A DNA stretch of 64,000 bases from a virus (taxonomy: Duplodnaviria > Caudoviricetes): IMG/VR virus record IMGVR_UViG_3300021959_007005; one strand, 5' to 3'. Both the position numbers and the translations under genes were made by a program. Under the pieces are notes generated by a model, which worked only from the letters and a program-made list of their open reading frames with translations, ran no database searches and was not told the DNA's origin. This document shows, in pieces, positions 27,191 to 45,947 of this stretch (positions within the stretch are counted from its first letter, which is position 1; each line of letters starts with the position of its first letter).

Positions 27191-27209
27191 GTTTTAGTAA
27201 TACTAAAAT

Positions 27210-27238: not shown

Positions 27239-27274
27239 ATGACTAAATACAGGTAGAGTATATAGGAGATTAAA

Positions 27275-29612: not shown

Positions 29613-29703
29613 GTGTGTCCAATAGTACTCATGAGAGGACTTATGCTGCACCACAGCGTAGCCCATAGAACGGGCGTAGGACTTCTTTTTAAGGAGAAAA
29701 CAA
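29613..29703 (+). ncRNA. Candidate structured cis-regulatory 5' leader, copy 1
   Basis: Follows TAAATAC; stems GTCC/GGAC, TATGCTG/CAGCGTA, GCCC-ATAGAAC-GGGC; near-identical to 30091-30182 with compensatory changes. Confidence 0.6.
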
Positions 29704-30075
29704 ATGGGAAGACCACTAAACAAAAGACACTTTGGCAATCCAGGTAATGATGGGTTCCAGATCAGGGTAACAGCAGACGTAGGTGCTGGCGCAAGCGCAG
29801 GTCATATTGTAAAGCAAACAGGCAGCAAGCGTTTTCTATGTGATGTAGGCGGAAGTGAAGCAGTTTGTTCATTAGGAGCAGGCGCACCAGGCGTAGGCGA
29901 AGTGAGAATTAACGTAACAGACAGTGCAGCAGGTACTTATGATGTTACTAAAATCTCAGGTAGAACATGTACAGTTAAACCACAGACAGGTACACAATTT
30001 GCTCAAGGCGATAAAGTTCCTTGGAACAAAATTGGCGCCGTGGTTAATGAAAGTGTTGTAATCGACTTTCTATAA
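29704..30075 (+). CDS. MGRPLNKR-family putative virion protein, paralogue 1
   Basis: AAGGAG SD; shares KQxGSKRFL, KISGRTCTV and GTQFA...KVxWN with 30183-30572. Confidence 0.75.
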   Translation: MGRPLNKRHFGNPGNDGFQIRVTADVGAGASAGHIVKQTGSKRFLCDVGGSEAVCSLGAGAPGVGEVRINVTDSAAGTYDVTKISGRTCTVKPQTGTQFAQGDKVPWNKIGAVVNESVVIDFL

Positions 30076-30090
30076 TTGCAGCATAAATAC

Positions 30091-30182
30091 GTATGTCCAA
30101 TAGTACTCATGAGAGGACTTATGCTGTACCCACAGCGTAGCGACTAGAACTCGCATAGGACTTCTTTTTAAGGAGAAAACAA
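30091..30182 (+). ncRNA. Candidate structured cis-regulatory 5' leader, copy 2
   Basis: Stems GTCC/GGAC, TATGCTGT/ACAGCGTA, GCGA-CTAGAAC-TCGC. Confidence 0.6.
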
Positions 30183-30572
30183 ATGGGAAGACCACTAAAC
30201 AAGAGAAATTTCGGCGCACGAGCAGACGCTGGTGCCCAAATTGCACCAGCCGCATACACTACCCAACTATTTGGTAATGCTCATATAATCAAGCAAAAAG
30301 GTAGTAAGCGTTTTCTAGTAGCAACTGCGCTGTCTGGGGTCGATCAACCAGACCAAATTTGCAAACTAGTAACGGATGTACCAGCTGCTACTGGTGAAAT
30401 GGTTATCAAATGTAAAGATAGTGTGAACGGAACTTACTTTGTAAGTAAAATTTCTGGTAGAACTTGCACAGTAGTAGCAGATTCAGGAACACAGTTTGCA
30501 TCAAAAACAAAAGTACAGTGGAACCTCAGTGCCGCTGAAGCTGGCGTATCAGTTATACTAGACCTAGCATAA
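30183..30572 (+). CDS. MGRPLNKR-family putative virion protein, paralogue 2
   Basis: Tandem paralogue of 29704-30075. Confidence 0.75.
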   Translation: MGRPLNKRNFGARADAGAQIAPAAYTTQLFGNAHIIKQKGSKRFLVATALSGVDQPDQICKLVTDVPAATGEMVIKCKDSVNGTYFVSKISGRTCTVVADSGTQFASKTKVQWNLSAAEAGVSVILDLA

Positions 30573-30686: not shown

Positions 30687-31289
30687 ATGGATAACATGAG
30701 AAATTTAATTAATTTAGTAGAGGGCCGTATTGAAGGCAATCCAGAAGTTAGTTACACAGATAGCGAAGGTGCATCTGCTACCAAAGTTGTAGCACAATTA
30801 AACAGTTATAAAAGCGGCGTGTATACTAAGTTAGCTATGAAATTAACAAGGCTAGAAGAAATTAAACAAGAAGCTAAAGAACTAACTGCTGAAATTAAGC
30901 AACAATCAAGAGAAAATGTTGCAGATTTATTTGATGCAGAAGATGCAGCAAGTACGAGAGTTGTAGACACATTACAATTTATTTTTACTATGACTAAAGA
31001 TCCAAAAGCAACTGAAAGTCCACAATATAAAAAGATACTAGAAACACTCGAAAAACAATTTACACCAGAGTTAACAGAAGTATATACTAGATTAAAATCA
31101 GAAATGGTTACAGTAACACAAAAAGCACCAGCCTTAAAAGTTGCAAAAAAAGAAGAATCAATACAAGAAATGTTAAATCTACGTGAGGGCATTGCTTCTA
31201 TGTTTACTAAAATTAAAAATGCAGTTATGAGATGGGGACAAAAATATGACGCCAAACTTGATGCATTAAAGGCACAAGTAGGGATGTAA
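30687..31289 (+). CDS. Hypothetical helical virion-type protein
   Basis: ATAAATAC box, AGGA SD; MDNMRNLINLVE N-terminal tag. Confidence 0.7.
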   Translation: MDNMRNLINLVEGRIEGNPEVSYTDSEGASATKVVAQLNSYKSGVYTKLAMKLTRLEEIKQEAKELTAEIKQQSRENVADLFDAEDAASTRVVDTLQFIFTMTKDPKATESPQYKKILETLEKQFTPELTEVYTRLKSEMVTVTQKAPALKVAKKEESIQEMLNLREGIASMFTKIKNAVMRWGQKYDAKLDALKAQVGM

Positions 31290-31291
31290 TA

Positions 31292-31666
31292 ATGAAAATT
31301 AATGAAGTGATACAAATAGTAGAAGAAGTTACGCTAGAAGATGATCAAGACTTCCATGAAGAATATGGCTATCTAGCATACAGCATTGATGAAAGTGATT
31401 TGTTCGAAGCAGAGTATCAAGGACGTAAAGTTAAACTAAACAAGCCAATGCGTGGCGATGTTAAAAAGTTTAAAGTATATGTTAAGAATAAAAAAGGCAA
31501 TGTTATCAAAGTTAACTTTGGACACGGTGGTACTAGTGCCAAACGTCCAACAATGCGTATACGCAAAAGCAATCCAAAAGCACGTAAGAGTTTTAGAGCA
31601 AGACATAATTGCGATAACCCAGGGCCAAAGACTAAGGCACGTTACTGGTCATGTAGAAAGTGGTGA
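31292..31666 (+). CDS. Conserved basic Cys-containing phage protein
   Basis: MKINEVIQIVEE tag; EAEYQGRKVKLNKP...KVNFG...RKSFRARHNC...ARYWSCRKW. Confidence 0.75.
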   Translation: MKINEVIQIVEEVTLEDDQDFHEEYGYLAYSIDESDLFEAEYQGRKVKLNKPMRGDVKKFKVYVKNKKGNVIKVNFGHGGTSAKRPTMRIRKSNPKARKSFRARHNCDNPGPKTKARYWSCRKW

Positions 31667-31667
31667 T

Positions 31668-32741
31668 ATGAAAGCTGAAGATTTAAGGTTACCTGCAGCC
31701 GCAGCAGGATTAAGAACAGGTACTTCATTTAAAAAAGGTGCTAAAGCGAGTGGACCAGTGAGTCAAGCTACTTACAATCGTGAAATGGGAGCTTTAGCAA
31801 GAAGTAAAACAGCCGTAAAACCAACAAAACAGATTCCAATGCCAGGGCGTGGTGTAAATGAACTTAAAATAGTTAAGCCTAATCCTAAGGATACCAAAGG
31901 TATTAAACGTAGTGATATGCCACAAGTGTCCAAAAAAGATTATCCAGAATTTTTTGAATACTTAAAATCTAACGGTGCTACTTTTGAGATGCAAAGAGAT
32001 ATTCCTGCTAACACATTCAAATCAACACAGGGTGAATTTAGCGATGCTGGTGTTGAGAGATCAATGACTAAACTACTCAAAGGTGCAAAAAAGAAACCAA
32101 TTATAGTTAGTCAAGACAACTATATTATTGACGGACATCACAGATGGTTAGTTGCTATGAACTTAGGCAACAGTACAGTTGACACAATAAAGATAAGCAT
32201 GGATGCAGATGAGTTGCTAGCACTAGTAAAAGCATTTAACAAAACAAGTTACAAAGACATTTACAGTGAAAAAATAGATAAATTTAATAAAGACGAACCA
32301 AACAAAAGTACAGTAGCAGTACCAGGTTACGGTACTATGAACATTGATAGTTTGATGAAAAATGTAATCGATCAAACAACACAAATGTTAACTCAGATGA
32401 AACAAGGCACACAGGGTTTTCGTAATGCAAATTATGCACTTAACAGTAATAAGGTGTTAGCAGCTAAAGTTGGGGCATTAGTACAAGCGTTAGATGACTT
32501 GCAGTCAATACGTAGTAAAGGCGGATCAAATAGTAGAAATATACAGCAAGAAGCAGAAAGCGATAATGAATTGCCAGTTGATGAAAATGCTATTATGTCT
32601 AAAATACAAGAATTTGAGAGCCAAGAATATGTTACACCAGAAGACGCTGACTTTATGAGAAGAGCTGTACAAAGTTTAACATCTGGTAGACAAACAATTA
32701 ATCCACAAGCTATACTACAGTTATTAACACTGGTATCATGA
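31668..32741 (+). CDS. Multidomain protein with ParB/sulfiredoxin-like domain
   Basis: True start probably the ATG at 31668; FKSTQ...KPIIVSQDNYIIDGHHRW is the ParBc/Srx signature. Confidence 0.7.
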   Translation: MKAEDLRLPAAAAGLRTGTSFKKGAKASGPVSQATYNREMGALARSKTAVKPTKQIPMPGRGVNELKIVKPNPKDTKGIKRSDMPQVSKKDYPEFFEYLKSNGATFEMQRDIPANTFKSTQGEFSDAGVERSMTKLLKGAKKKPIIVSQDNYIIDGHHRWLVAMNLGNSTVDTIKISMDADELLALVKAFNKTSYKDIYSEKIDKFNKDEPNKSTVAVPGYGTMNIDSLMKNVIDQTTQMLTQMKQGTQGFRNANYALNSNKVLAAKVGALVQALDDLQSIRSKGGSNSRNIQQEAESDNELPVDENAIMSKIQEFESQEYVTPEDADFMRRAVQSLTSGRQTINPQAILQLLTLVS

Positions 32742-33586
32742 AAGCATTTGAAATCATAAATGAACGTGTTCAACAACGTACACAGATTATGTATCATGGC
32801 ACTAGTACTAATTTAATACCTAGTATTAAGTCTAACGGATTATTAGCAACACCACCAAAGAAAACATATGATAAAGACACGTATGGTGCAAGTACTGCGA
32901 GTATGGGTGGTGTATATGTTGCTAGTGAGAAAGGCTTTGCATTAGAAGTTGCTCGTGAAGCAGTTGGAACACATGGTGGCGAAAAGGCACTAGTTACAAT
33001 ACAATATGTAAAAGGTTCAGGAGACCTTGACGAGGATGAAATAGTTGCTAGTATTAGTGATGCCGCCCAGCAAATAATGAGAAAACTGTCTGCTGACGCA
33101 CCTAATAAAAGACCAGATATCATACCAAGTGGAATGAAGTTTAAAGATGAGCCACCTGATCGTTATTCTGGAATGAGCTATCCAGATCAAGGATGGGCTG
33201 CTGATTGGATGGTTAGTAATATAGATAAATCCGCAACTCAAATCGCCACACGAACAATAGAAATACTACAGAAAAAATCCAAACCAAGTAAGCAAGCCAT
33301 TTCTATAGTAAAACAAATGGCAACTAAATTATTACAGTCAGCTAGTAAGGTTGAAGACGCATATGGCAGATCAAGAGCCATTGGCTTTGATGCGTATGAT
33401 ACTTTTAGAGAAAACATGGAAGATTTATTATCGGTATTAATGCAACAAGTTAATCCTGATACTGCTAATAAGAGTGCAGAATCAAGACGTATTAATAGAG
33501 ATGTAAAGTTTAAAGGTAAAACAAGAATACTACAAATTGAATCTCCTGTTGGCAATATTGTATATAAAGATGCAAATTTTAATTGA
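32738..33586 (+). CDS. Putative ADP-ribosyltransferase-fold protein
   Basis: MKAFEIINE tag, then MYHGTS...SIKSNGLL...GGVYVAS...A, typical of HY-clade ART/Tpt1-like strands. Confidence 0.55.
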   Translation: MKAFEIINERVQQRTQIMYHGTSTNLIPSIKSNGLLATPPKKTYDKDTYGASTASMGGVYVASEKGFALEVAREAVGTHGGEKALVTIQYVKGSGDLDEDEIVASISDAAQQIMRKLSADAPNKRPDIIPSGMKFKDEPPDRYSGMSYPDQGWAADWMVSNIDKSATQIATRTIEILQKKSKPSKQAISIVKQMATKLLQSASKVEDAYGRSRAIGFDAYDTFRENMEDLLSVLMQQVNPDTANKSAESRRINRDVKFKGKTRILQIESPVGNIVYKDANFN

Positions 33587-33641
33587 CAGTTAATACCCAA
33601 TAGTATACAACATAGTAGTACATACAATCTAGGTAATCAAA

Positions 33642-34760
33642 ATGGAAATGAAAATAACTAAAGAACTGAAACAACTAGATAAAATGTTTACTAAGTCTGG
33701 CTACGACATACGAGTTGTAGGTGGTGCAGTAAGAGATCTCGCATTAGGTAAAGATCCAAAAGATATAGACCTTGCAACAAACGCAACCCCCACAGAAATG
33801 CAAAAAATGTTTGACAGCTCAGGCGTTAAGCATATACCGTCAGGCATTGAACATGGCACTATAACTGCCATAATCAACGGCGAGGAGTTTGAAATAACCA
33901 CACTAAGAGCAGACGTGGAAACAGACGGTAGGCATGCAGAAGTGGAGTTTGTACGTAGTTGGAAAGAAGATGCTAAACGCAGAGACTTAACGTACAATGC
34001 AATGAGCATGGATTTTGATGGTAAACTATATGATTACTTTGGTGGTATGGATGACTTACAAAACAAAGTAAGCCGTTTTGTCGGTGATCCTGCAGCACGT
34101 ATACAAGAAGATTATTTGCGTATATTAAGGTATTTCCGTTTCCAAGGAAGAATGGATACGCCAAAGTTTGAAAAAGATACAATGAAATCTATAGCAGATA
34201 ATGTTTCTGGACTAAAGCAGTTGAGTGTTGAACGTGTTTGGATGGAAATAAGCAAGATACTTAGTGGTGGAAATATACAGCAAGTACTTAGTGCTATGTC
34301 ACATACTGGTGTAACTAATTCTTTAAATTTACAAGTGCAAAATATAGATAAAGTACAAGATGGCGGAGATCCTATTATAAATCTTGCTAGAATAACTAAC
34401 GATGAATCAGTAGGCAAGCGTTGGAAGATGAGCAATGATGAAAAATCAAAGCTAGGGTTCCTAATACAAAACAAAGGGCAAACACACGATAAAAAGTGGT
34501 TTACTGATCAAATGGCAGACGGATTTAATAGAGATTTGTTGGATGCACTTGCTAGGTTTAATCATCAAGACGATATGATACAGCATGTTAAATCATTCAA
34601 AGCACCTGAGTTTCCAGTTACTGGAAATGACTTGATGAAACTAGGACATGCACGTGGTCCTGGTATAGGAAAAACGTTGCAGTCAATGAGAGATCAATGG
34701 AAAAAAGGTAACTTTGATTTAAGTAAAGACGATTTGCTAAAGAGTGTAAGTAAAGAATAA
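33642..34760 (+). CDS. cca: Class II CCA-adding tRNA nucleotidyltransferase
   Basis: VGGAVRD...DIDLAT; GIEHGT; EITTLR; EDAKRRDLTYNAM; RIQEDYLRILRYFRF; TTGACA at 33583. Confidence 0.9.
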   Translation: MEMKITKELKQLDKMFTKSGYDIRVVGGAVRDLALGKDPKDIDLATNATPTEMQKMFDSSGVKHIPSGIEHGTITAIINGEEFEITTLRADVETDGRHAEVEFVRSWKEDAKRRDLTYNAMSMDFDGKLYDYFGGMDDLQNKVSRFVGDPAARIQEDYLRILRYFRFQGRMDTPKFEKDTMKSIADNVSGLKQLSVERVWMEISKILSGGNIQQVLSAMSHTGVTNSLNLQVQNIDKVQDGGDPIINLARITNDESVGKRWKMSNDEKSKLGFLIQNKGQTHDKKWFTDQMADGFNRDLLDALARFNHQDDMIQHVKSFKAPEFPVTGNDLMKLGHARGPGIGKTLQSMRDQWKKGNFDLSKDDLLKSVSKE

Positions 34761-34788
34761 ATACACTTAGTAAATAAAGGCCCTTTAC

Positions 34789-36723
34789 ATGAGACTTAAT
34801 GAATTAACAGAAGCATTAGATAATCCATATCCATACACCTGGTACGAGCGTAGTAATGATACATGGACTGCATATGCAGAATTGAATTCAGAACGTTCAT
34901 CTGATGGAAGAGATGACGAAGACGCAACACTTAGAATAATAGCTGACAGAGTTTCAGGCGGTGATGACTGGGACGATGATGAGCGTGTGGTTCCTACCAT
35001 TTGGGAACTTAGCTTTATGACTGGTTATAAAACTCACAAGACCGGTGCAGGTGATCAATTTAGAATTTTTGCTACAGTGGTTGCCGCATTTACTGATTGG
35101 TGGAAACAAATGGGATCAAAAGTAAATGATATTGACGAACTTGAATTTACCGCAGATAAAGCAAAAGATGGTAAAAGCAGAGCAGTACTATATGCTAGAT
35201 TTGCTAAAAAGTTTGCACAAATGACTGGCTTTAATTTAGAAACTAAGCAAGATAGTTATCAGGATGTCTTTACGTTTGTAAATCCACAAAGTAGTTTTGC
35301 TGAGGCTTCAGTTACTGAAGTATCAAAAGAAGAGTTTGATGCTATTCAGAATGGATACGTTGATATTGAGTTTGATAAGAAGTGGTGGCCACTAGACGAT
35401 GATTACCCACTGATCAAACATATCGGTAAAGCAATCGGCGCAACTAGTTGGACTAGTTGGGGTAAAGTTGGTGTCCCATGGTCAGAAAAAGAAATGATCG
35501 GTGGCGGTGGCACATATATGCTTAAAGGTGATTTCGGTCATATCTTGTTGGATGCGGCTAAGAGTTTTAGCCCAGAACAAATTTTAATGGCACAAATATC
35601 AACTTCTAATCGTGGTGGTGGCGTCGGCGTTAAAGTTATGAACGCAATAAAGTCATATGCCGATCAAAAGGGTTTGCCAATAACAATATATAAAGTAACT
35701 AATCAGAAGTTTTTTGACAAGTTTGAATGGTTAGAAAAGACAGGTGCTGATACATACGAATATAAACTTAGTAGTTTTGCTGAGGCTTCAGTTACTGAAG
35801 AGGTAAGTCTTCCAGAAGATATCTTTCATATGAAAAACAGATTGCTAAAAGTTAAAAAAATAACTGATGCAATGGGTAATCGTCCAATAATGTTTAGAAG
35901 TTTTGTATATGACGCAGATCGTATTGGAAAAATTATTAAAAAGGTAACTAATGATAGTGGCAGAAAAATAAAAACTGGAAGCAATCAAAAACAACAAGAA
36001 GTCTTACAAAAACTTGGTGTCAACAATCCAACATTTGCAAACCTTGCAGCAGGAAAGCATGCAGATGTTCGCAGAACCTCACTTGAGGATCATGGGGTAG
36101 CTGGATTGCAAAACATTTTTATCCCAATAAGCAACGAAATATATTACAGTGATGCAGTTGAAGACTTGGGCATGGGTCGCTCAACAGGTGGAAAAAATAT
36201 TTCATTGCAAAGTGACTTTGATGTAGATAAAGCAGTAGCCAGTTATAAAAAAGGGTGGCCACCTGCTGGATTTGATAACGAAATAATTGTAGATACTGAT
36301 AAGTATTATCTTCTAAACTTGCAGTCTTTTTTATTAGAACTAACAAGTCCTGATATTAAAGATCAGATTAAACGTTTAAAAAGAGAATATGATAAGTCAT
36401 ATTCTAGCAATGCATCAAAAAATCAGGTCGATGATATTTTAAAAGATCTGTTTAAAACAAAAATAATGACATATAGTAATATATCACGCTGGATCGAAAG
36501 TGTTGCTATTCCTTTTGTAGATATGCTTGGAGCCAGTAGTGTACAAGAAAACTTTGCTGACGGTAAAGTAAAAGGCAAAAGTAGACCAGGGCGTGTAAAA
36601 CGTAGTGGTGCAAGTTGTAATGGTAGTGTAACAGAACTAAGAGCCAAAGCAAAAAAAGCCAGCGGTGAAAAAGCAAAAATGTATCACTGGTGCGCCAACA
36701 TGAAGGCTGGTAAGAAGAAATGA
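34789..36723 (+). CDS. Modular multi-domain (polyprotein-like) virion-type protein including a GNAT-like module
   Basis: MRLNELTE tag; SSFAEASVTE linker occurs twice; RGGGVGVKVMNAI acetyl-CoA-binding-like motif; basic Cys-containing C-module after VQE. Confidence 0.7.
   Translation: MRLNELTEALDNPYPYTWYERSNDTWTAYAELNSERSSDGRDDEDATLRIIADRVSGGDDWDDDERVVPTIWELSFMTGYKTHKTGAGDQFRIFATVVAAFTDWWKQMGSKVNDIDELEFTADKAKDGKSRAVLYARFAKKFAQMTGFNLETKQDSYQDVFTFVNPQSSFAEASVTEVSKEEFDAIQNGYVDIEFDKKWWPLDDDYPLIKHIGKAIGATSWTSWGKVGVPWSEKEMIGGGGTYMLKGDFGHILLDAAKSFSPEQILMAQISTSNRGGGVGVKVMNAIKSYADQKGLPITIYKVTNQKFFDKFEWLEKTGADTYEYKLSSFAEASVTEEVSLPEDIFHMKNRLLKVKKITDAMGNRPIMFRSFVYDADRIGKIIKKVTNDSGRKIKTGSNQKQQEVLQKLGVNNPTFANLAAGKHADVRRTSLEDHGVAGLQNIFIPISNEIYYSDAVEDLGMGRSTGGKNISLQSDFDVDKAVASYKKGWPPAGFDNEIIVDTDKYYLLNLQSFLLELTSPDIKDQIKRLKREYDKSYSSNASKNQVDDILKDLFKTKIMTYSNISRWIESVAIPFVDMLGASSVQENFADGKVKGKSRPGRVKRSGASCNGSVTELRAKAKKASGEKAKMYHWCANMKAGKKK
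35290..35800 (+). repeat. Perfect 31-bp direct repeat pair (35290-35320 and 35770-35800), 480 bp apart, in frame
   Basis: AGTAGTTTTGCTGAGGCTTCAGTTACTGAAG at both positions. Confidence 0.95.
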
Positions 36724-36908
36724 GATTTCGAGAACTAACTGAAGATGGAAAAATTGTTCCAGGGGTAAATACTACAGTTGATGTACAACCTGGCGAAACT
36801 GAAAGACAAGCAAAGAAATTGTTTCCTATGAATAAAGACGGAAAGCCCAAGCCATTGGGTGTAAAAGGTGCTACGCCTCATCAAGCATTTAACTTGGGAC
36901 TAGATTAA
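36720..36908 (+). CDS. Small virion-type protein
   Basis: MRFRELTE tag; IVPGVNTTVDV module; ATGA overlap. Confidence 0.7.
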   Translation: MRFRELTEDGKIVPGVNTTVDVQPGETERQAKKLFPMNKDGKPKPLGVKGATPHQAFNLGLD

Positions 36909-37771
36909 TGAAGATTAACGAAATTTTTGAAAATATGAGTTATACTGGCACTGCATTAAAAAAAGCAGAGCGTAAAAAGGGTATACAGCCAGGGACGACT
37001 GAATGGTTCCAACATTGGTTTGAGTTGCCTTATATGAAAGAAGATGTGTCACAAGGACAATTAAATGCTTTAGAAAAAATTGTTGATAAAGTATTTGCTC
37101 GTGTTGGTATTGATGTGGAATTTACACGTCACTTTTTAGATAGAGTAAATGATGAACGTAACGGCGAGCCTATTAGTATACAAGAGTTGGGAAGATTATT
37201 TGCTAAAGAATATAAGCAATGGGGGAAGCCAATTGCACAAATGGGTCCAAACCAAGCAATAATGAAAGATTTAGAAAGTGATATTAATGTACCATTTGTA
37301 TTAGAAATTAACCCACGTACTAAAATGCTTGACTTAGTTGCCAAGAGTGTTATGCGTAAGAAAGATTTCAGAACAAGTAATAAGGTATTTGCTGTTGAAG
37401 ACTTTGGCAGTTTGCCTAGTTTAGTAGATTTAATTTTACTTGCTGTTGCACTAAAGACAACAGTAGCTGGTGTCAGAGTATTGTTCAAAACTGCACAAGG
37501 ATATAGAAAATTACTTCGTGCTGCAGATTCAGTTGGTGTTAAACTAGCAAACAAACTGCAAAGAGAAGATACTAAAGATGAAATGATGGATAGAATTTTG
37601 GCTAGTCAAAAGAATCGTTTTTGGGATGCCGCAGTAGAAGCATTGCATCGTTTAGTAACATCACAGTCAGGACGCCAAAGTTTAGGCGGTTATGCATTTG
37701 ATATTTCTAAAAGTTTCAAAGATATGGATTCTAAAGAACTGATATCTGCATATAGACAAAAATATTCATAG
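36908..37771 (+). CDS. Modular virion-type protein, central domain possibly an RNase-like fold
   Basis: MKINEIFE tag; modules separated at KE/VE/RE; central FTRHFLDRVNDERN...VMRK. Confidence 0.6.
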   Translation: MKINEIFENMSYTGTALKKAERKKGIQPGTTEWFQHWFELPYMKEDVSQGQLNALEKIVDKVFARVGIDVEFTRHFLDRVNDERNGEPISIQELGRLFAKEYKQWGKPIAQMGPNQAIMKDLESDINVPFVLEINPRTKMLDLVAKSVMRKKDFRTSNKVFAVEDFGSLPSLVDLILLAVALKTTVAGVRVLFKTAQGYRKLLRAADSVGVKLANKLQREDTKDEMMDRILASQKNRFWDAAVEALHRLVTSQSGRQSLGGYAFDISKSFKDMDSKELISAYRQKYS

Positions 37772-37816
37772 ACTTACAAAAAAACACATGTTATAATAAT
37801 TAAAAATGGAGTTACT

Positions 37817-38722
37817 ATGAAAATAGCTATAATGCTTAGTGGGCAAGCTAGATATCTCGAACAAAGTGCTGAATGGTGGCAAAAAGTGTTTCCTAAAATA
37901 ACTGGATCACATATAGAGGTTGATTTTTTCTGTCATTTTTGGGAAGAACCGGGAAGAGACTTATATGAAGAATGTCAACGCCTATTTAACCCAGTTAAAT
38001 GTTTTATACAGTCTTATGATGATGTTTTTTATCCACATATGTATGCTATTCAAAATCTAAATAAAAAATATGATAAGCATACGGAACTAGTACCTAACGA
38101 TGTTAGGTCTACTTTATTATTTCCAGGAAGTGAACTTAGTACATATGCATATAATTTTCATGCGATGTTTTTAAGTGCATCTGCAATAGGAAAAATGTGT
38201 GGAGAGTTGACTGAATATGACTTTGTTATTAAAACAAGAAGTGATACAGTGTTTAATCCAATGGCCGAACATCATTGGATGAATTTATTACACAATATGA
38301 GAAAAGATATATACAACAATATTATATTTTCTCCTTGGATGCGTTTACATAACGGAAGCGGCTATTTTGGTGATTTGGCATTTATTTCTGCTCCATCTAC
38401 TATGTATAGATATTTAAAAAACTTAGACGATAATCTTATTAATGTGTGTACCAAATATAAATTTCTGTTTGGTGAAAGATTAATAGAATCTAGCTCTCCA
38501 ATTGCCCATTGGATGTGGCATAGATTAAGTATGGAATCTAAGGTTGATTGGCTTGCAATTAGTGTAGTTTGGCCTACACCATTTAATGCAGCATTAATAA
38601 GGAATAACGAACCAGTTACTAATTTTGATTTTGATACTATGCTAGAAAAGTATAAAAATGAAGAGGATTCGAGACATGCGGAAATGCATAAAAAAGATCT
38701 TATTAAACCAAGGTCAACTTAG
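37817..38722 (+). CDS. Hypothetical glycosyltransferase/polysaccharide-biosynthesis-like protein
   Basis: MKIAIMLSGQAR...VDFFCHFW...YDFVIKTRSD pattern; sigma70-like TATAAT upstream. Confidence 0.55.
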   Translation: MKIAIMLSGQARYLEQSAEWWQKVFPKITGSHIEVDFFCHFWEEPGRDLYEECQRLFNPVKCFIQSYDDVFYPHMYAIQNLNKKYDKHTELVPNDVRSTLLFPGSELSTYAYNFHAMFLSASAIGKMCGELTEYDFVIKTRSDTVFNPMAEHHWMNLLHNMRKDIYNNIIFSPWMRLHNGSGYFGDLAFISAPSTMYRYLKNLDDNLINVCTKYKFLFGERLIESSSPIAHWMWHRLSMESKVDWLAISVVWPTPFNAALIRNNEPVTNFDFDTMLEKYKNEEDSRHAEMHKKDLIKPRST

Positions 38723-38733
38723 CGGACAATTAG

Positions 38734-38741
38734 TATAAATA
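38734..38741 (+). promoter_or_regulatory. T4-type late promoter TATAAATA
   Basis: Exact consensus, 5 nt before the ATG at 38747. Confidence 0.6.
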
Positions 38742-38746
38742 ACTAT

Positions 38747-38941
38747 ATGAAAGTCTGGGAAGTCATAAAAGAAGATACTACTTCTGGCGTATTTGCCAGT
38801 GTTGCTATGCCACTGTTTACAGGAAAAAAAGGCAAAGCACATCACAAGGCTGCACGAAAAGCAGTAGGATTAGAAGACACAGGAAAAAACAAACCTGTTG
38901 TTCCAGGCTATCCAAATAACATGATTCGGAGAGTCAAATGA
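38747..38941 (+). CDS. Small virion-type protein
   Basis: MKVWEVIKE tag. Confidence 0.7.
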   Translation: MKVWEVIKEDTTSGVFASVAMPLFTGKKGKAHHKAARKAVGLEDTGKNKPVVPGYPNNMIRRVK

Positions 38942-39405
38942 GACTAAACACATTAAACACAAATAAAGCGCCTAAAGCAGTACCAATGGTTGTCAAAGAA
39001 AATGCTGGGTATGCAGTTAAAGATATAAATGGTATTACAAGGAAACTATTTGACGATATTGATATTGCAAATCATTATATGAAACGTCACAATAAAGAAC
39101 TTAGAGAAGGTGTCGAGCCAGTTGTATACATGAGTGAAATTATGGAAGGTGTTCTTGATAGCACTGACGATGATGGATGGATGGCAAAAGGACAACTATA
39201 TCAACTTAGTAAGTATAGTGTAGAGTTACACGGAATGATTCAAGACACGGATAATTTAGAGCCTTGGGTACAAGCAAAAATTACTAAAGCAGCAGATTAT
39301 ATTAGTGCAGTTAAACATTATATGGAATATCTAGTAATTAATGATCAACAATCTGACGCACCAGTAGTAATAGATGACCTTCCTGACGACGAATTTGAAA
39401 TGTAA
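38938..39405 (+). CDS. Conserved hypothetical virion-type protein
   Basis: MAKGQLY...LEPWVQAKITKAADYISAVKHYMEY helical module. Confidence 0.7.
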   Translation: MRLNTLNTNKAPKAVPMVVKENAGYAVKDINGITRKLFDDIDIANHYMKRHNKELREGVEPVVYMSEIMEGVLDSTDDDGWMAKGQLYQLSKYSVELHGMIQDTDNLEPWVQAKITKAADYISAVKHYMEYLVINDQQSDAPVVIDDLPDDEFEM

Positions 39406-41102
39406 TGCGTTTTACGGAGTTCACTGATCTAACTGAAGGCCTCCCTGCTTTAAATCAAGGTGGGGTGTTTGGCTCTGGGTTAGATCCACAGCAATTCCAA
39501 CAACGCTACGGGGTTTCTGCAGCTAATGCATCAAACGCAGTTAAGAATGTAGTTAAATTATCGCCGGGATTTAAAAGTCCCCAAATGAAAAATGCACTAC
39601 AGAGTTATTTTTTAGAAAACCCTAAATCACTTCAAGCAGCTAATCAAAATTTCAACCCACAAGGTCAATTAAAATCAAACGTAAAGCCTGGATTATTCAA
39701 AGGGTTGCTAGGTAAAGCATTTGGTGCCATTGGATTAATATTCACTCCTAGTGCTACAAACCAGGGAGAAGACCAAGCAGTAAGACAAATGGAAGCTGTT
39801 TGGAAATTTACAAGATATTTGTTAAAAAATGCACCCAAGGAATACATTAAGTTTTATAATGATGAATGGGATGCATTAACCCCAAAAGAAAAAGAAACAA
39901 ACGCACAATGGAACCCAACAGAGTCTGACGAATATAAGCAAGCTCAAGAAATAGTACGTATGTTAGGCAAAAATACTACTGATTTTTCTCCTAACGAAGA
40001 TCCCACCCCAGATGAAGTTAGCCCACAAGTCCAACCAGATTGGTGGCCGGAGGATTTACCTTTTAATCCAGAGACATTGCCAGAGCCAGATACTCGTCCT
40101 GAAACGAAACCAATAACACAACCGGATATTCCTACTGTACCAGAGAAACCAACAACACCAGAACCAGATGACGCACCAGAACCAAAAGTTAATCCAAAGT
40201 CTCCTGATGTAGATCCAACTCCTCCGAAGCAACCAAGCGATCCAAAAATAGAACCAGACAAAAAACCTCAATCAGAACCAATAACGCCGCCTAAGTTTCC
40301 AGGTATTCCTGTACTACCTGATGCGCCTGGGCCTGAGACACCATTGGAAATTCCAGAACCAGATGTGGATCCAACTTCTCCGGAGCAACCAATAGTACCT
40401 GATCCACTGCCAGTACCGGGACCTGAATTAGATCCTAAAGCACCGGAACAGCCACTGACACCAGAAGTGCCTGATAATGCTCCAATTGTGCTTCCTAGAA
40501 TTTCGCCAGACGCTGATCCGCAATTTGATCCAACCCCAATGCCTGTTATTCCTCTACCGGATCCATCACCAGTACCTAGTACAACTCCATCAGATCCAGC
40601 AGCACCACCTAAGCCACAACCCAAACCAGAGCCTGGGCCTAATATAAATCCGCTGGCACCTTCTCAACCAAACACTCCAAAAATAGATCCAAATACTAAT
40701 CCTAAATCAGACCCAATTACACAACCAGATATTCCTACTACGCCAGCTCAACCGGAAGCTCCTAAACCAGATGATGCACCAGCAACTCAGCCTGCACCAA
40801 AGCCAGCACCTAAGCCAGTACCGAAACCTAAGCCAGCACCGAAACCTAAGCCAGTACCGAAACCTAAGCCAGCACCGAAACCAAAACCCAAGCCTGCACC
40901 CAAAGTTGCACCTACACCTAAGGTACAACCAATACCTAAAACTGGTGGGGGAAGAGGTGGTAGGCCACCACGTATAAGACCACGTAAAAGAATCGGGTTA
41001 CCTCCATTTAGTGCAAAGGGTGATAACAAAAAATGGGTACCATTTGATTTTGTAAACGTAAGAGATCCGTTAGATCTTGGCAGAGCGGCAAGACGTAGCT
41101 AA
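39405..41102 (+). CDS. Pro-rich extended protein
   Basis: MRFTEFTDLTE tag; about 300 aa of P/E/D/K low complexity with PKPAP/PKPVP repeats. Confidence 0.75.
   Translation: MRFTEFTDLTEGLPALNQGGVFGSGLDPQQFQQRYGVSAANASNAVKNVVKLSPGFKSPQMKNALQSYFLENPKSLQAANQNFNPQGQLKSNVKPGLFKGLLGKAFGAIGLIFTPSATNQGEDQAVRQMEAVWKFTRYLLKNAPKEYIKFYNDEWDALTPKEKETNAQWNPTESDEYKQAQEIVRMLGKNTTDFSPNEDPTPDEVSPQVQPDWWPEDLPFNPETLPEPDTRPETKPITQPDIPTVPEKPTTPEPDDAPEPKVNPKSPDVDPTPPKQPSDPKIEPDKKPQSEPITPPKFPGIPVLPDAPGPETPLEIPEPDVDPTSPEQPIVPDPLPVPGPELDPKAPEQPLTPEVPDNAPIVLPRISPDADPQFDPTPMPVIPLPDPSPVPSTTPSDPAAPPKPQPKPEPGPNINPLAPSQPNTPKIDPNTNPKSDPITQPDIPTTPAQPEAPKPDDAPATQPAPKPAPKPVPKPKPAPKPKPVPKPKPAPKPKPKPAPKVAPTPKVQPIPKTGGGRGGRPPRIRPRKRIGLPPFSAKGDNKKWVPFDFVNVRDPLDLGRAARRS
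40791..40904 (+). repeat. 18-bp coding tandem repeat (PKPKPA/PKPKPV)
   Basis: Units such as CCGAAACCTAAGCCAG(C/T)A. Confidence 0.85.
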
Positions 41103-41124
41103 ATAATACTGTTAAGGATGTACC

Positions 41125-42849
41125 ATGGATAGTTTAACAGAAGCACAAATAATAGAAGCACAAGTACAAGAAATAATAGATGAAGCAGAACAACTCAATG
41201 AGTTCTTGCCACTAATACCATTGGCTATTTGGGCAGGTGGTGCTGCATGGACAGCCTACGATGTTTATCGTACTGCAAAACAATACAAAGCAGGTGAAAT
41301 TACCAAAGGTGAAGTTGCTAAACGAGTTGGTACTGATGTTGCATTAAGTATCGCTGGAGGAGCAATAGCCAAGGGTTTAATTAAAGGTGGAAAAGTTGGT
41401 TACGGCGTAATTAAAAAAGTAGTTGACAAAAGTAAAGAAAAGTTCGATGTAGTTGATCGAGCAAATAAAAGAGGGCGTACTACTAAGGATATAACAATTG
41501 GTGGTCAAAAAATAGTTGATCCTACTAAAGTAACTACAGCACGTGGTGCTGATGGTAAGATGAGAGCATTAACTAAAGCAGAGAAAAAAGCATTAGCAAG
41601 GGCTAGTGATACTAGAAGTACTGCCGCAAAAGCAATTGATGCGGTTTCTGCACCAGTTAAGGCGGTTACTGGGTTGGGTAAAGGTGGACTTGACAGAAAA
41701 ATGGGCACTGCTACAAGTAATGTTGTTAAAAAAATTACTGACCCCTTAATGAAAAAGAAAAATATTCCTACAGTAGCAATAGATCCTTTAACCAAAAAGT
41801 TTAAAAAATTAGATGGACCAATTGATGACAGAACTAGATTAGCTAAAGTTATTGACGCACCAAAAGCTGGACTGGATGCTCTAAGAAAAGTAGATGACTT
41901 TATTGGTGATATACCTGGCAACATTGCAAGAAAAACTATAGACACAGTAACACAGAATCCAATTGCTAAAGCAGAAAAAGCTAGACGTAAAGCAGCTAAA
42001 CAAATTAGAGCGGCGGATGCAGTCGCAGCAAGAGCCGCTAAAGAAATTGATAAGCAAATGCAGCAAGCAAAAGACTTGCGTAAACGTGATGCAACACAAC
42101 GTATTAGATCTGCTGATGCGGATGCGGCAGCTGCCGCTAAAAAAGCAGCAAAGAGTGCAGATGAATTTAAACGTAATGCAGCTCAACGTAATGCTAGTGC
42201 CGCAATGCGTAATGCAGATAACATCGCAGTTAAGCAAGCAACTAGGCAAGCAGCAGACCAAAAAGCAAATGCCGCCAAAAGAAGTGCATCAGCAGCAATA
42301 CGTAAAGCAGATAAAATTGCTACAGACAGAGCATCTGATGTAGCCGCATTTAAACGTAATGCAGCTCAAAGAACAGCTTCAACTAGGATGCGTAGTGCAG
42401 ATAAAATTGCTACTAGACGAGCTGATGATCTAGCAGTAAATGATAAAAGAAGAGCGGCAGCAGCCACAATTAGAAAAGCAGACTCAGATGCAATTAAAAA
42501 AGCAAAAGAGATAGAAATTGCTGCTAAAAAGAAACGAGCAGATGCTGTGGCAGCAAGAGCTGCTAAAAAAGCAGATGCAGAAGCACGTATTAAGAAAGCT
42601 GATGCCGCCGCAGCGAAGAGATTAGGCAAAAAGACAGATGCTGGTGAAATCGCTGCAAGAGTAGCTGCAAGACGTGCAGCCAGAAAAGTTGATGGTAAGA
42701 CAAAAATGGCCAAGCGTGTGGGAAGAAGAGTTGACAAATTAATTCCAGGCGGTAAATCTGGTGGTGGCGCTCCAGCAGCTTCATGGCAGTCATTTTCGCC
42801 AGTCGCAGTAAATGATCCACTAAATTTGTCAAGAGCTAATAAAGGGTAA
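41125..42849 (+). CDS. Lys/Arg/Ala-rich basic protein (histone-H1-like composition)
   Basis: CTAAATAA box; acidic N-tag ending LNE, hydrophobic FLPLIPLAIWAGGAAW, then FKRNAAQR.AS..MR.AD.IA repeats. Confidence 0.75.
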   Translation: MDSLTEAQIIEAQVQEIIDEAEQLNEFLPLIPLAIWAGGAAWTAYDVYRTAKQYKAGEITKGEVAKRVGTDVALSIAGGAIAKGLIKGGKVGYGVIKKVVDKSKEKFDVVDRANKRGRTTKDITIGGQKIVDPTKVTTARGADGKMRALTKAEKKALARASDTRSTAAKAIDAVSAPVKAVTGLGKGGLDRKMGTATSNVVKKITDPLMKKKNIPTVAIDPLTKKFKKLDGPIDDRTRLAKVIDAPKAGLDALRKVDDFIGDIPGNIARKTIDTVTQNPIAKAEKARRKAAKQIRAADAVAARAAKEIDKQMQQAKDLRKRDATQRIRSADADAAAAAKKAAKSADEFKRNAAQRNASAAMRNADNIAVKQATRQAADQKANAAKRSASAAIRKADKIATDRASDVAAFKRNAAQRTASTRMRSADKIATRRADDLAVNDKRRAAAATIRKADSDAIKKAKEIEIAAKKKRADAVAARAAKKADAEARIKKADAAAAKRLGKKTDAGEIAARVAARRAARKVDGKTKMAKRVGRRVDKLIPGGKSGGGAPAASWQSFSPVAVNDPLNLSRANKG

Positions 42850-42853
42850 TAAG

Positions 42854-44269
42854 ATGAAAAAAGATGCAAATAGTATACTAAAAAATATTTTTGATAAAGC
42901 CGCCAATGCGGTTAATGAAGGTTACAAAGTACTTCCTCCAATGGATGACAAGTACCAACCACGTGATGGTTTAGAAGGCCCGTTTACAACATTAAGTGGA
43001 AAAGTAGTATACTATGATCCAGGCGAGGGGGCATATTACGACCCAGATACTGATTTTTATATTTCATACGATGAGTACCAAGAACTAGATAAAGATTATA
43101 GTGGTATGAAAACCGAAGGTGTTGAAACAGATTATGAAAATGAGATTGATCAAATTATTGATGAGATAAAAGAGTTAGGAATAACAGATGTAGATGAAAT
43201 CGCCAGTGTTGTTGGAAACTTTATTGATAATGAAGATGACGCAGCGGAAGTATACGTAACTGTGTTAGACTTTTTGGGACTTGCAGAATCAATTAGCGAA
43301 GGTGCAATGGATGATGAGATTGCCGCATACTACAGGCAGTTAAAACTTCCAAATATGAAATCTTGGAAAAAATTAACAAAAAATGAAAATCTTGGAGGAT
43401 CTCCATTTAGAGCATCCGCTGCTAATGCTGAAGATTATGGCATGTTTAGTCAAGATGGTAATTATGAAGTTCAAGAGATTGTCGACGATGCATGTGGAAT
43501 GGTTAAAAGTGGTGAAGCTGATATTATGAAGGCAGTCGATGCAGCAATGCGAATGCTTACAGATCTAAGTGAAATGGGCGGTCACGAAGAAGCAGAAGAC
43601 ACCGCAGTACGTGATAGTGTTACACGAGCTATTTGGAATCGTTGTGATAATGACGATACTAACGAAGGGCATAGTCCACATAAAAAAGGTACTGCAAAAT
43701 ATAAAAAGCATATGGCTGCAATGCATGCTGAAGATAAAAAGAAAATGGTTAAGGATCCAAAAACAGGTAAGATGGTTCCAAGTTATGCAATAGACGGCAA
43801 AGGTGATAATGATCTTAAAGAGAAGGTATCAATTTCCCAAGTTAAAGAAAGTATCAATACTAAGTCCACAGACAAGAATCGCATAGTAGCGGATTATATT
43901 GGCGGATACTTAAATGGAAACCTTACTGAATCACAAGTTAAAGATGAAATTAAACATGTAGTAAGTCAAATACGCGAATCTGTTGATGCTAACGTAATAT
44001 ACACTAACATGCGTAAAACTAATATACAAGAATCTCTTGATAAAAAATTAATGGTAAGAGAAAGTATTGCACAACTCCAAAAAATTGTATCAGACAAGCA
44101 AATGATGCCAGTTAAATTTACTGACGGCAGTATGAAAATTGATATGACTACAGCAAATATAGTTCTAGATGCATACAAAAAAGTTAAGCCTGAAAATCAA
44201 CAAAAAATAGAAAAAATGATGGAAACAAAATACGGGTTTAAGCGTTTATTAGATATCATCTATAAATAA
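42854..44269 (+). CDS. Modular virion-type protein
   Basis: Several short modules separated by xNE/xKE/xRE; C-terminal VKFTDGSMKIDMTTANIVL domain. Confidence 0.7.
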   Translation: MKKDANSILKNIFDKAANAVNEGYKVLPPMDDKYQPRDGLEGPFTTLSGKVVYYDPGEGAYYDPDTDFYISYDEYQELDKDYSGMKTEGVETDYENEIDQIIDEIKELGITDVDEIASVVGNFIDNEDDAAEVYVTVLDFLGLAESISEGAMDDEIAAYYRQLKLPNMKSWKKLTKNENLGGSPFRASAANAEDYGMFSQDGNYEVQEIVDDACGMVKSGEADIMKAVDAAMRMLTDLSEMGGHEEAEDTAVRDSVTRAIWNRCDNDDTNEGHSPHKKGTAKYKKHMAAMHAEDKKKMVKDPKTGKMVPSYAIDGKGDNDLKEKVSISQVKESINTKSTDKNRIVADYIGGYLNGNLTESQVKDEIKHVVSQIRESVDANVIYTNMRKTNIQESLDKKLMVRESIAQLQKIVSDKQMMPVKFTDGSMKIDMTTANIVLDAYKKVKPENQQKIEKMMETKYGFKRLLDIIYK

Positions 44270-44898: not shown

Positions 44899-45753
44899 AT
44901 GAGTAAATTTACATTTGACTTTAAAGGAAGATATGTAGCAGACATCTTACATCTTGGTAAAGATGACGCTATGGAATGGTTAGGCGCAATGCAAGATGTA
45001 TTACCTAAATATGACATTAATACTCCAGAAAGAGTTGCTGGATTTATGGCTCAAACTGGGCATGAATCCAATGGATATAAGGTACTTACTGAAAACTTAA
45101 ACTACAGTGCAAAAGCACTCGATGCTATATTTGGCAAATATTTTAAACGAGCTGGGAGAGATGCAAATGAATATCATAGACAGCCTGAAAAAATTGCGAA
45201 CGTTATTTACGCAAACAGAATGGACAACGGTGATACCAATTCCGGTGATGGCTGGAGATTTAGGGGCGGTGGCATACTGCAACTTACAGGTAGAAGCAAT
45301 TATACAAGATTTGGAGAATCAGTTGGAATGAGTGCTGAAGAAGCAACTGACTATGTACGCACAAAAGAAGGTGCTCTTGAGAGTGCATGTTGGTTCTGGA
45401 AAACAAACAACTTAAACAAATACTGTGATAATAATGATATCACAACATTGTCTAAGCGTGTTAATGGTGGTACAATTGGTCTTGAAGATCGTATTAAACA
45501 TTGGAATCATGCAATGGAATTGTTTACTGGAGTAGCAGCACCACACGTAGAAGAGAAGCTAGACATTAAACTTATTAAAAAAGGTAGTAGGGGATCGCTT
45601 GTTAAAGCAATGCAAGAAGTGCTTGGACTTGATGCTGATGGCGACTTTGGCCCAGGCACAGAACGTGCGGTCAAATCTTGGCAAGCTGAAAATGGACTAA
45701 CACCTGATGGCATTGTAGGACCAAAAACACTAGCTAAGATGGGTATTGAATAA
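44899..45753 (+). CDS. Endolysin: glycoside hydrolase family 19 plus C-terminal peptidoglycan-binding domain
   Basis: FMAQTGHES...ENLNYS...FRGGGILQLTGRSNY...VNGGTIGLEDR; PG_binding_1 DGDFGPGTERAVKSWQ...LTPDGIVGPKT. Confidence 0.92.
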   Translation: MSKFTFDFKGRYVADILHLGKDDAMEWLGAMQDVLPKYDINTPERVAGFMAQTGHESNGYKVLTENLNYSAKALDAIFGKYFKRAGRDANEYHRQPEKIANVIYANRMDNGDTNSGDGWRFRGGGILQLTGRSNYTRFGESVGMSAEEATDYVRTKEGALESACWFWKTNNLNKYCDNNDITTLSKRVNGGTIGLEDRIKHWNHAMELFTGVAAPHVEEKLDIKLIKKGSRGSLVKAMQEVLGLDADGDFGPGTERAVKSWQAENGLTPDGIVGPKTLAKMGIE

Positions 45754-45947
45754 TGGCAGCAAACGATGATGATCAAGGAAAGTTGGAAATTGCCGTAAGA
45801 GTATTAGGTAATGAACTAGTTGCTTTAAAAATGGTAGTAGATGATTTTAAAATGAAATGGTTAGTAATCGGTGTATTCACCATTGTGTCATTATTTTGGG
45901 CCGCTAGTAAATTTGGTCCAGCATTAATGGGAACATTTGGATCATGA
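45753..45947 (+). CDS. Small single-TM protein (holin/antiholin candidate)
   Basis: TAATG-coupled to the endolysin; WLVIGVFTIVSLFWAA. Confidence 0.55.
   Translation: MAANDDDQGKLEIAVRVLGNELVALKMVVDDFKMKWLVIGVFTIVSLFWAASKFGPALMGTFGS

Follow-up and report, generated by a model that had tools for sequence, protein, structure and literature searches.

What does it mean that a run of otherwise dissimilar phage genes begins with nearly the same short peptide? The question is raised by an island at positions 30687–44269 of a 64,000-nt stretch of the virus record IMGVR_UViG_3300021959_007005 (hereafter the window), in which eight or so proteins start with what may be a propeptide (hereafter the tag) of the form M-(K/R)-h-x-(E/D)-h-x(1-2)-E, where h is a hydrophobic residue. 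The best-supported explanation, and in our judgement a likely one given the sequence comparisons and the analogy with phage T4, is that the island tags are capsid-targeting tags on head cargo. By the same analogy, the tagged proteins probably travel in the head and enter the host together with the DNA.

A short N-terminal tag concentrated in one gene island

The genes that carry the comparison, including two outside the island, are as follows (aa, amino acids; pI, isoelectric point; ART, ADP-ribosyltransferase; a slash within a sequence marks a proposed junction).

30687–31289, + strand: protein of 200 aa with the start MDNMRNLINLVE; its gene is the first after a late-promoter-like ATAAATAC at 30661
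31292–31666, + strand: tagged 124-aa protein; tag MKINEVIQIVEE, an acidic spacer ending LFE/AE, and a basic HVA1-like module YQGRKVKLNKP...ARYWSCRKW
31668–32741, + strand: ParB-like nuclease-domain protein of 357 aa, pI 9.3, with the relaxed tag MKAEDL; starts 1 nt past the previous stop
32738–33586, + strand: tagged ART-like protein of 282 aa; MKAFEIINE followed directly by YHGTS...GGVY...DED
33642–34760, + strand: untagged CCA-adding tRNA nucleotidyltransferase (Pfam PolyA_pol, 1.5e-37; phrog_2244, 6e-65)
34789–36723, + strand: tagged 644-aa mosaic or polyprotein; tag MRLNELTE
36720–36908, + strand: tagged 62-aa protein; MRFRELTE followed by a DGKIVPGVNTT module; gene kept in G001, the nearest related record
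36908–37771, + strand: tagged 287-aa protein; MKINEIFE, a small PGTTEWF module, a conserved core FTRHFLDRVNDERN..., then a hydrophobic stretch and a domain with GGYAFDI
37817–38722, + strand: untagged protein of 301 aa; sigma-70-like promoter TAGACT-17-TATAAT in front of the gene
38747–38941, + strand: tagged 64-aa basic protein; MKVWEVIKE, pI 10.2, with an exact TATAAATA at 38734
39405–41102, + strand: tagged 565-aa proline-rich protein; MRFTEFTDLTE, C-terminus ending DPLDLGRAARRS
41125–42849, + strand: 574-aa Ala/Lys-rich protein, pI 10.4, starting MDSLTEAQIIE; tag not supported
13819–14589, − strand: 256-aa protein (phrog_30118, 2.7e-58) with the T4-type 10-mer MKNLKEYLKE; late-promoter-like AATAAATAA upstream
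25873–26199, + strand: 108-aa protein starting MKAKEF, the sole strict match outside the island, in a unit behind ATAAATAC at 25681

A total of 98 genes were called mechanically in the window, with one manual correction at 31292/31668. Expressed as a strict motif (^M[KR][ILVMFAWY].E[ILVMFWY]), the tag starts 7 of the 15 island genes (31292, 32738, 34789, 36720, 36908, 38747, and 39405) and 1 of the 83 other genes of the window (25873; Fisher p = 3.4e-6). A preliminary description of the locus had left room for the motif being equally common elsewhere; these counts show that it is concentrated in the island. With D also allowed at position 5 (the relaxed motif), the ParB-like gene (31668) is included and the counts become 8/15 versus 1/83 (p = 3.4e-7). 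Inside proteins, 26 of 19,283 positions match the same five-residue pattern, a frequency that corresponds to 0.13 N-terminal matches expected by chance, and none of the 491 internal Met residues is followed by it. Strict and relaxed tags alike have hydrophobic residues at positions 3 and 6 and an h-x-E ending at positions 8–11. The island genes at 33642, 37817, 38938, 42854, and 44269 are untagged.

The first ten residues of the T4 internal protein IPIII suffice for encapsidation, with residues 4 and 7 acting mainly in targeting and residues 8 and 10 in processing (PMC9026906). Compared with this capsid-targeting sequence of T4 (CTS; MKTYQEFIAE), the window tag has the same two hydrophobic residues three apart followed by h-x-E, and is one residue shorter near the N-terminus, so that its Glu residues fall at positions 5 and 8/9 rather than 6 and 10. 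Codons of the tag and the DNA upstream of it vary among the tagged genes, several of which are translationally coupled; the likeness therefore appears to have been selected at the level of the peptide. As far as the aligned genes tell, the similarity is one between peptides and not between DNA sequences.

The ten tagged N-termini listed in the preliminary description all coincide with the starts of open reading frames (ORFs) at the coordinates given there, and seven of them match the strict motif. Those at 30687, 41125, and 14589 do not; MDNMRNLINLVE and MDSLTEAQIIE share with the others only an h-x-E within the first 13 residues, a loose feature found in 28 of the 98 genes, which leaves them indistinguishable from background, whereas MKNLKEYLKE (14589, minus strand) fits the T4-type 10-mer, with hydrophobic residues at 4, 7, and 8 and Glu at 10, which is the exact T4 spacing. 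The tag at 31292 sits on the 124-aa protein and not on the ParB-like protein, which is a separate ORF from 31668. The ParB-like frame is free of stops for 72 codons 5' of its ATG (31452–31667), overlapping the end of the 124-aa gene, which is unusual at the 36% G+C of the window. A programmed frameshift joining the two ORFs was considered and rejected: such a fusion is unlikely because the 124-aa ORF ends exactly where its free-standing homologues end (...ARYWSCRKW).

T4-type head genes in related giant phages

The window holds phage genes along its entire length and is, by sequence, a fragment of a larger genome, that of an uncultured marine giant phage (approximately 350 kb) in the T4 superfamily. 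The nearest record, G001, contains the same island at 96–98% identity; it is an IMG/VR fragment of 78 kb, and its completeness rating of 22% corresponds to a full genome of approximately 350 kb. The family-B DNA polymerase encoded at 47617–50295 is 43–47% identical to those of Sinorhizobium phage Phosso, Agrobacterium phage Atu_ph07, Pectobacterium phage CBB, and Cronobacter phage GAP32, all of them giant myoviruses of the wider T4 superfamily, and 58–60% identical to those of 4 metagenomic records of 289–355 kb (G002–G005). Several homologues of window proteins come from Tara Oceans, in agreement with a marine origin. The island DNA had no nucleotide match among 50,697 GenBank phage records.

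Peptidase_S77, the family of the T4 prohead protease gp21, is present as one copy above the Pfam cut-off in all 4 relatives that are at least 80% complete. The preliminary description had proposed looking for a gp21-like protease elsewhere in the genome, and the relatives provide one, whereas the window and G001, both fragments, do not. Ten further related contigs gave no match, but all are fragments 23–65% complete and hence uninformative. In T4 the head genes are ordered 20-67-68-21-22-23. The same order of portal, two small genes, protease, scaffold, and major capsid is found in G003, a complete record of 355 kb that has terminal repeats: the portal gene (233205) is followed by genes of 78 aa (start MNIFELFDPE) and 303 aa (start MNKYEKLIEY), the protease gene (236195–236833), a 366-aa scaffold-like gene, and a 397-aa major-capsid-like gene. 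The same genome carries a 14-kb run of tagged genes at 27.3–41.3 kb (MRLNEF, MRYQDF, MRYSEL, MRYNEI, MKSKDF, MRYNEL, MRYHEI, and MKITEI) and approximately 16 tagged ORFs in total. Their products are mostly unlike those of the window, so that the locus is conserved and its content is not.

The tag is conserved, exchanged with T4-type sequences, and portable

Homologues of the cargo candidates retain the tag over long distances. All 58 homologues of the ART-like protein are tagged; in an alignment of 30 of them, reaching down to approximately 31% identity, the tag is present in 30/30, and neither M1 nor E9 varies. For the 287-aa protein there are 1558 homologues in many architectures (210–503 aa), including fusions to zeta-toxin-type or AAA_33 kinase domains, and among the best 120 of these, 114 start with MK(I/L)xE(L/F), the six exceptions looking like truncated gene calls.

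One homologue of the 287-aa protein, gp42 of Paraglaciecola Antarctic GD virus 1, starts instead with a T4-type CTS, MKSFEQYIEE, and lies among approximately 10 neighbouring ORFs with T4-type starts. These ORFs (MW805361.1, 20162–28014), annotated as 'hypothetical protein', begin with MKSFDQFVAE, MKSFTSYIEE, MKSFEQYIEE, MQTFDQFLTE, MKTFSEYLTE, MKTFSTFMAE, and MKTFSEFLGE. Judged from these starts, this cultured marine phage seems to have an internal-protein island that has gone unannotated, and we found no paper describing the GD virus 1 ORFs as cargo. Unlike the window tag, the sequences on gp31–gp50 of this virus have the classical 10-mer spacing, and the proteins are small and of a single module. 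The same exchange is seen with domain C of the 644-aa protein (described below), of which 29 of 47 free-standing homologues carry a strict short tag (MKINELITK, MRATEFIPE, and others) and other free-standing homologues carry T4-type tags (MTTFKQFVSE, MKTFKHFNEA). As read from these alignments, the short tag is interchangeable with T4-type tags on homologous cargo.

The HVA1-like module of the 124-aa protein occurs with and without a tag. It is free-standing, untagged, and 79–85 aa long in four viruses, namely Pelagibacter siphovirus Kolga (MAKYQGR), Roseobacter phage CRP-902 (MATYKGK), Pelagibacter podovirus HTVC106P, and a Nitrosopumilaceae spindle-shaped virus (MAIYRGRK). In the window, in Kyanoviridae phage C48C1 (MKKFKQYIDE...LTE/AEYQGKK), and in G003 (MKSLKEYIAE...), the module follows a tag and an acidic spacer, which in the window ends LFE/AEYQGRK. 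A cut after this h-x-E would leave a protein starting A-E-Y-Q-G, with the length of the free-standing forms after removal of their Met.

Similar junctions precede the 58-aa basic module (NFADGKVKGKSRPGRVKR...MYHWCANMKAGKKK) at the C-terminus of the 644-aa protein, which more than 594 IMG/VR contigs carry at 85–98% identity downstream of unrelated domains. The residue before the junction (P1) is Glu in 64/64 contexts, and P3 is I, L, V, M, or F in 56/64. The shortest proteins with this module consist of tag and module alone (MRASEFTE/NFADGK, 65–68 aa), and of 44 distinct complete ORFs that contain it, 28 carry the strict tag and 10 near variants. The DGKIVPGVNTT module of the 62-aa protein (36720) likewise stands behind tags in many metagenomic proteins. 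By these comparisons the tag is portable, being attached to unrelated proteins and missing from homologues in viruses that are not of the T4 type.

A putative polyprotein and the gain or loss of a cassette

The 644-aa protein (34789) consists of the tag MRLNELTE, domain A, the linker SSFAEASVTE, a GNAT-like cassette, a second SSFAEASVTE, domain C (residues 348–586), the junction SVQE/NFADGK, and the 58-aa basic module. The linker sites F-A-E and V-T-E and the last junction, V-Q-E, all fit h-x-E. The Glu-ending linkers are encoded by a perfect direct repeat of 31 nt.

35290–35320, + strand: copy 1 of the 31-nt repeat, encoding the Glu-ending linker
35770–35800, + strand: copy 2, exactly 480 bp downstream of copy 1

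The orthologue in G001, a 97%-identical phage, is 484 aa long; the repeat occurs there once, and what is absent is exactly the GNAT-like cassette of 160 codons (480 bp). Matches of other contigs to the 644-aa protein start or end near the linkers (residues 172–325, 335–644, and 585–644). From this arrangement the protein looks like a polyprotein, which the head protease would cut into the tag and four modules, and the linker DNA may double as a crossover site for cassettes. It is conceivable, and put forward here tentatively, that this clade uses a short MKINEL-type tag to load changeable enzyme polyproteins, which would be cut at Glu linkers into effectors, with the linker DNA as the point of exchange. 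One and the same handful of codons would in that case specify targeting, processing, and the exchange of modules.

What the candidate cargo proteins resemble

The ART-like label of the preliminary description held. Residues H20, Y60, and D98-E99-D100 of the 32738 protein are invariant in 30 homologues, and its AlphaFold2 model (pLDDT 80.8) aligns to ARTs. Foldseek returned KptA/Tpt1 RNA 2'-phosphotransferases and PARP10/14/15 with probabilities of 0.9–1.0, E-values of only 0.02–0.3, and alignments of 73–106 residues; a weak Pfam match to PARP lies below threshold, and PARP is a precomputed annotation on 17 homologues. By its modelled fold, the protein is ART-like, of the Tpt1/PARP branch and the H-Y-E triad type. 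Searches of PDB sequences with the ART-like protein and with the ParB-like protein gave no match.

The ParB-like protein (31668) matches PHROG ParB-like families at 9e-9 to 1e-3 over residues ~128–289, and phrog_2859, a family of no known function, at 1e-25. It has no Pfam match and no homologues in G002–G006, and a pattern-based search of IMG/VR for its relatives retrieved only the nearest record itself. Of its earlier description as tagged cargo, the ParB-like domain is a candidate assignment, and the tag fits only the relaxed motif.

Residues ~191–335 of the 644-aa protein resemble GNAT clusters in the ESM Atlas, with a TM score of 0.51–0.62 over 105–129 residues (Atlas model pLDDT 0.54) and feature-search scores of 0.90–0.91; the sequence itself has no Pfam match. 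Domain C belongs to a viral family whose function is not known: 27 family members gave no Pfam match and no PDB profile match. We considered and rejected an ART assignment for it, the Atlas hints to DarT, PARP, and OspC being weak (feature score 0.86–0.88, TM 0.38). A tblastn search of the 50,697 GenBank phage records with the whole protein found no match, and its PDB sequence matches, to designed repeat proteins and Rab1, were weak and set aside as spurious.

The 'possible RNase' and 'histone-like' labels given earlier are supported by none of the searches made, which for the 287-aa protein did not include a fold search. The AlphaFold2 model of the 287-aa protein, built on a 28-sequence alignment, is poor (mean pLDDT 57, with the conserved core at residues 44–168 below 50), and most of the protein has no homologues in G002–G006. 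The 124-aa protein (31292) matches phrog_7595 at 1.5e-13. The 200-aa protein (30687) has neither a Pfam nor a PHROG family and no homologue in G002–G006. No island protein matched IPI, IPII, IPIII, or other internal-protein families in Pfam or PHROG.

The 39405 protein, with no family match, has TonB-like proline tracts that are first acidic and then basic, (KP)n, and measures 565 aa in the window versus 612 aa in G001. This protein and the 41125 product are unrelated low-complexity proteins with a common C-terminal motif, DPL(D/N)L(G/S)RA (DPLNLSRA in 41125), their shared ends reading ...VRDPLDLGRAARRS (39405) and ...VNDPLNLSRANKG (41125). The motif was found nowhere else in approximately 1.6 Mb of related loci. 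In both proteins, moreover, a hydrophobic stretch lies near the N-terminal region.

Putative late promoters and charge of the encoded proteins

The heptamer ATAAATA occurs in 20 copies on the two strands of the window, most of them 20–35 nt 5' of start codons. Sites of this type precede the genes at 30687, 34789, 38747, 44269, and 44899, the minus-strand gene at 14589, and the minus-strand genes of the left end. The T4 late-promoter consensus is TATAAATA. Sites resembling it in and next to the island are the following.

34757–34764, + strand: late-promoter-like ATAAATAC, ~25 nt upstream of the polyprotein gene
30661, 38734 (TATAAATA exact), 44261 (TATAAATA exact), and 44868, + strand: similar late-promoter-like sites

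In G003, TAAATA(C/A) also stands before the first tagged gene and, among the head genes, before that for the portal and the two small core genes. The (A)TAAATA(C) sites thus resemble late promoters and are putative promoters of the island operons. The 301-aa gene at 37817, with its sigma-70-like promoter, is probably an insert with different timing and not cargo. Six of the 8 tagged proteins have a pI of 9.0–10.2, the polyprotein and the proline-rich protein having values of 7.1 and 5.5, respectively, and the pI of the untagged island proteins is 4.6–6.5. The internal proteins of T4 are highly basic (PMC8442874).

A head-cargo model and its alternatives

Taken as head cargo, the island would be a late-expressed and fast-changing block. 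The tag would bind the assembling prohead core, and a gp21-type (Peptidase_S77) protease would cut after the tag Glu, giving predicted N-termini of RVQQRTQIMYHGTS for the ART-like protein and, at its spacer junction, AEYQGRK for the 124-aa protein. The mostly basic cargo would then be trapped with the DNA and leave with it at infection. Larger cargo would be made as polyproteins with Glu-ending linkers, from which the same protease would free small domains. By analogy with known injected proteins, the cargo may act against the host or its defences. The earlier proposal of capsid-targeting tags with a protease site on diverse cargo is well supported on comparative grounds, namely the protease and synteny in relatives, the conservation and interchange of the tag, its absence from the HVA1-like module in viruses not of the T4 type, the h-x-E at junctions, the late-promoter-like sites, and the basic charge, whereas the claim of a payload much larger than that of T4 is upheld for gene number and size but not for mass.

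Several points weigh against this model. The case rests wholly on sequence comparison and analogy with T4, and the tag differs in length from the T4 CTS that was tested experimentally. The prohead protease was found neither in the window nor in G001, and was seen only in relatives whose polymerase is approximately 59% identical. The Glu before NFADGK could belong to the module instead of marking a cleavage site. Five island genes, including that of the CCA-adding enzyme, are untagged, so that the island is not purely cargo. Some homologues in the T4 superfamily hold the domain within larger untagged proteins (phiN3 gp356).

The tagged proteins could instead be parts of the scaffold or core that, like most of the T4 scaffold, are degraded and expelled before DNA packaging and are not effectors. 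The two small genes of G003 at the position of gp67 and gp68 do start with tag-like sequences (MNIFELFDPE and MNKYEKLIEY), and the acidic spacers hold many h-x-E sites. Yet folded, enzyme-like domains (ART-like, GNAT-like, and ParB-like) are present in the cargo, the small basic modules are intact across hundreds of contigs, the sets of cargo vary between relatives, which is unexpected for essential scaffold parts, and most tagged proteins are basic, as are the retained T4 internal proteins; we regard a scaffold role as unlikely. A common N-terminus could also have nothing to do with the capsid and be a binding helix, a degradation or localization signal, or a preference in translation initiation, its likeness to the CTS being coincidental. 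Packaging is proposed by analogy, a loose h-x-E near the N-terminus is common in the window (28/98 genes), and Lys at position 2 and AAA or AGA as second codons are frequent in AT-rich phages. These considerations account poorly for a strict motif that is at least 50-fold enriched and clustered, that swaps with genuine T4-type CTSs on homologous cargo, that the same module lacks where a virus has no gp21 system, and that always ends in a gp21-type h-x-E, with the same site at internal junctions; the varied codons of the tag argue, in addition, against an initiation signal at the nucleotide level. A role unrelated to the capsid is quite improbable in our estimate.

The gain or loss of a cassette at the linker repeats allows yet another reading, in which tags and Glu linkers are kept mainly as DNA-level recombination handles and have no targeting function. 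Perfect 31-nt repeats flank the GNAT-like cassette, exactly that cassette is gone from a 97%-identical phage, and modules are widely shuffled among contigs; in T4-type genomes, mobile promoter cassettes are reported to mediate shuffling (PMC2839356 and PMC4122927). However, the N-terminal tags of the window differ in their codons and upstream DNA, and the tag keeps its peptide sequence among homologues of approximately 30% identity. Recombination at the linkers is, moreover, compatible with their being protease sites as well and is no substitute for that function, and as the main reason for the tags we consider it very improbable.

Genes around the island

Two copies of the freshwater-2 RNA motif (Rfam RF02980) lie at 29625–29706 and 30103–30185 (+ strand), with bit scores of 66 and 72 (gathering score, 49.9). 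Each is directly 5' of one of two paralogous genes starting MGRPLNKR (29704 and 30183), which adjoin the island on its upstream side and of which G001 has only one. The gene that follows the major capsid gene of G003 starts MGRPISKK, and its N-terminus resembles those of the two window genes. Further upstream are a gene for a 185-aa RyR-domain protein (29038–29595, + strand; Pfam PF02026, 6e-10), just upstream of virion-protein genes, and, a few kb upstream of the island, one for a 732-aa Clp-type ATPase (22834–25032, + strand; phrog_4871, 8e-248). A gene at 26671–27261 of G003, ClpP-like on the basis of its N-terminal sequence only, is directly upstream of the tagged cluster in that genome.

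Downstream of the island, an endolysin-like gene with Glyco_hydro_19 and PG_binding_1 domains (44899–45753, + strand) stands behind a late-promoter-like site and is followed by two 64-aa ORFs (45753–46138), the first of which (45753) has a hydrophobic segment and could encode a holin. A 401-aa ORF at 59655–60860 (+ strand) begins with MANLVVIGTQWGDEGKGK, a signature that marks the N-terminus of adenylosuccinate synthase (PurA); PurA-like PurZ enzymes make 2-aminoadenine genomes in some phages. A second N-terminal pattern, L..L.(E/R)(L/N)AG(I/V), appears as MDDLNRVRELAGV, MNELDLLKRNAGI, and MDNIEELQVLAGI (window 16102 and 28795; G003 278792). Seen on two window proteins and one G003 protein, L..L.ELAG(I/V) has too few cases to be judged.

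Relation to known packaged proteins and significance

Portable CTSs on diverse cargo have been known for T-even phages since the 1990s, and the advance here is one of scope and architecture, not of kind. The cargo of the T4 CTS is diverse (PMC9026906; PMC3012670), and many T-even ip genes were found through their signal sequence (PMC3012670, PMC12373910). Like the products of those genes, the tagged proteins of the window are unrelated, mostly basic, and not conserved, and they are clustered in variable loci. Unlike T4 IPI–III, they share no sequence similarity with these proteins, include enzyme-like domains, and reach 644 aa as polyproteins, compared with the 76 residues of mature IPI*. A further difference from T4 is that the window derives from an approximately 350-kb uncultured marine phage known from sequence alone.

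The closest parallel to the 32738 protein is T4 Alt, an ADP-ribosyltransferase that is packaged, injected, and processed by gp21 at both termini (PMC9026906). By analogy, the window protein would be an ART-fold protein with an N-terminal propeptide that the head protease removes. It differs from Alt in its YHGTS...GGVY...DED signature, its KptA/Tpt1-PARP fold, and its much smaller size of 282 aa, a distinction drawn by description. Alt belongs to the R-S-E clade.

Among giant phages, the ejection or inner-body proteins of phiKZ-like phages (phiKZ, 201phi2-1, and SPN3US) are processed by a gp21-related protease that cuts after Glu at short motifs, with propeptides that hold several sites (PMC9026906; accessible text of PMC7411985 and PMC10052503). 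The window phage would resemble them as a giant phage with many proteins proposed to be packed with the DNA. In contrast to the phiKZ-like phages, its lineage has a T4-like polymerase and head module (the head module being known from relatives), the nearest cultured polymerases being Rak2-like and of the Atu_ph07 type. The phiKZ-like cargo families are unrelated to those of the window, and the descriptions in PMC9026906 and in the accessible text of PMC7411985 and PMC10052503 mention no common N-terminal tag.

We found no paper describing this short tag, these cargo families, or this phage clade. What is new is the shorter tag, its occurrence in an abundant clade of uncultured giant phages, the proposed enzyme-like polyprotein cargo, and the gain or loss of a cassette at linker repeats. 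The scale is considerable, with 1558 database homologues for one cargo family and more than 594 viral contigs for another module. If the head-cargo explanation is correct, the injected cargo of abundant uncultured giant phages of the ocean could be read straight from sequence, and the ART-like enzyme, the GNAT-like domain, the ParB-like nuclease domain, the small basic proteins, and the families without known function would be candidate effectors of the first minutes of infection. The design of polyproteins with linkers would show how large sets of enzymes could be packed and then released as small units, and the short tag might give phage engineering a second protein-packaging handle besides the T4 CTS.

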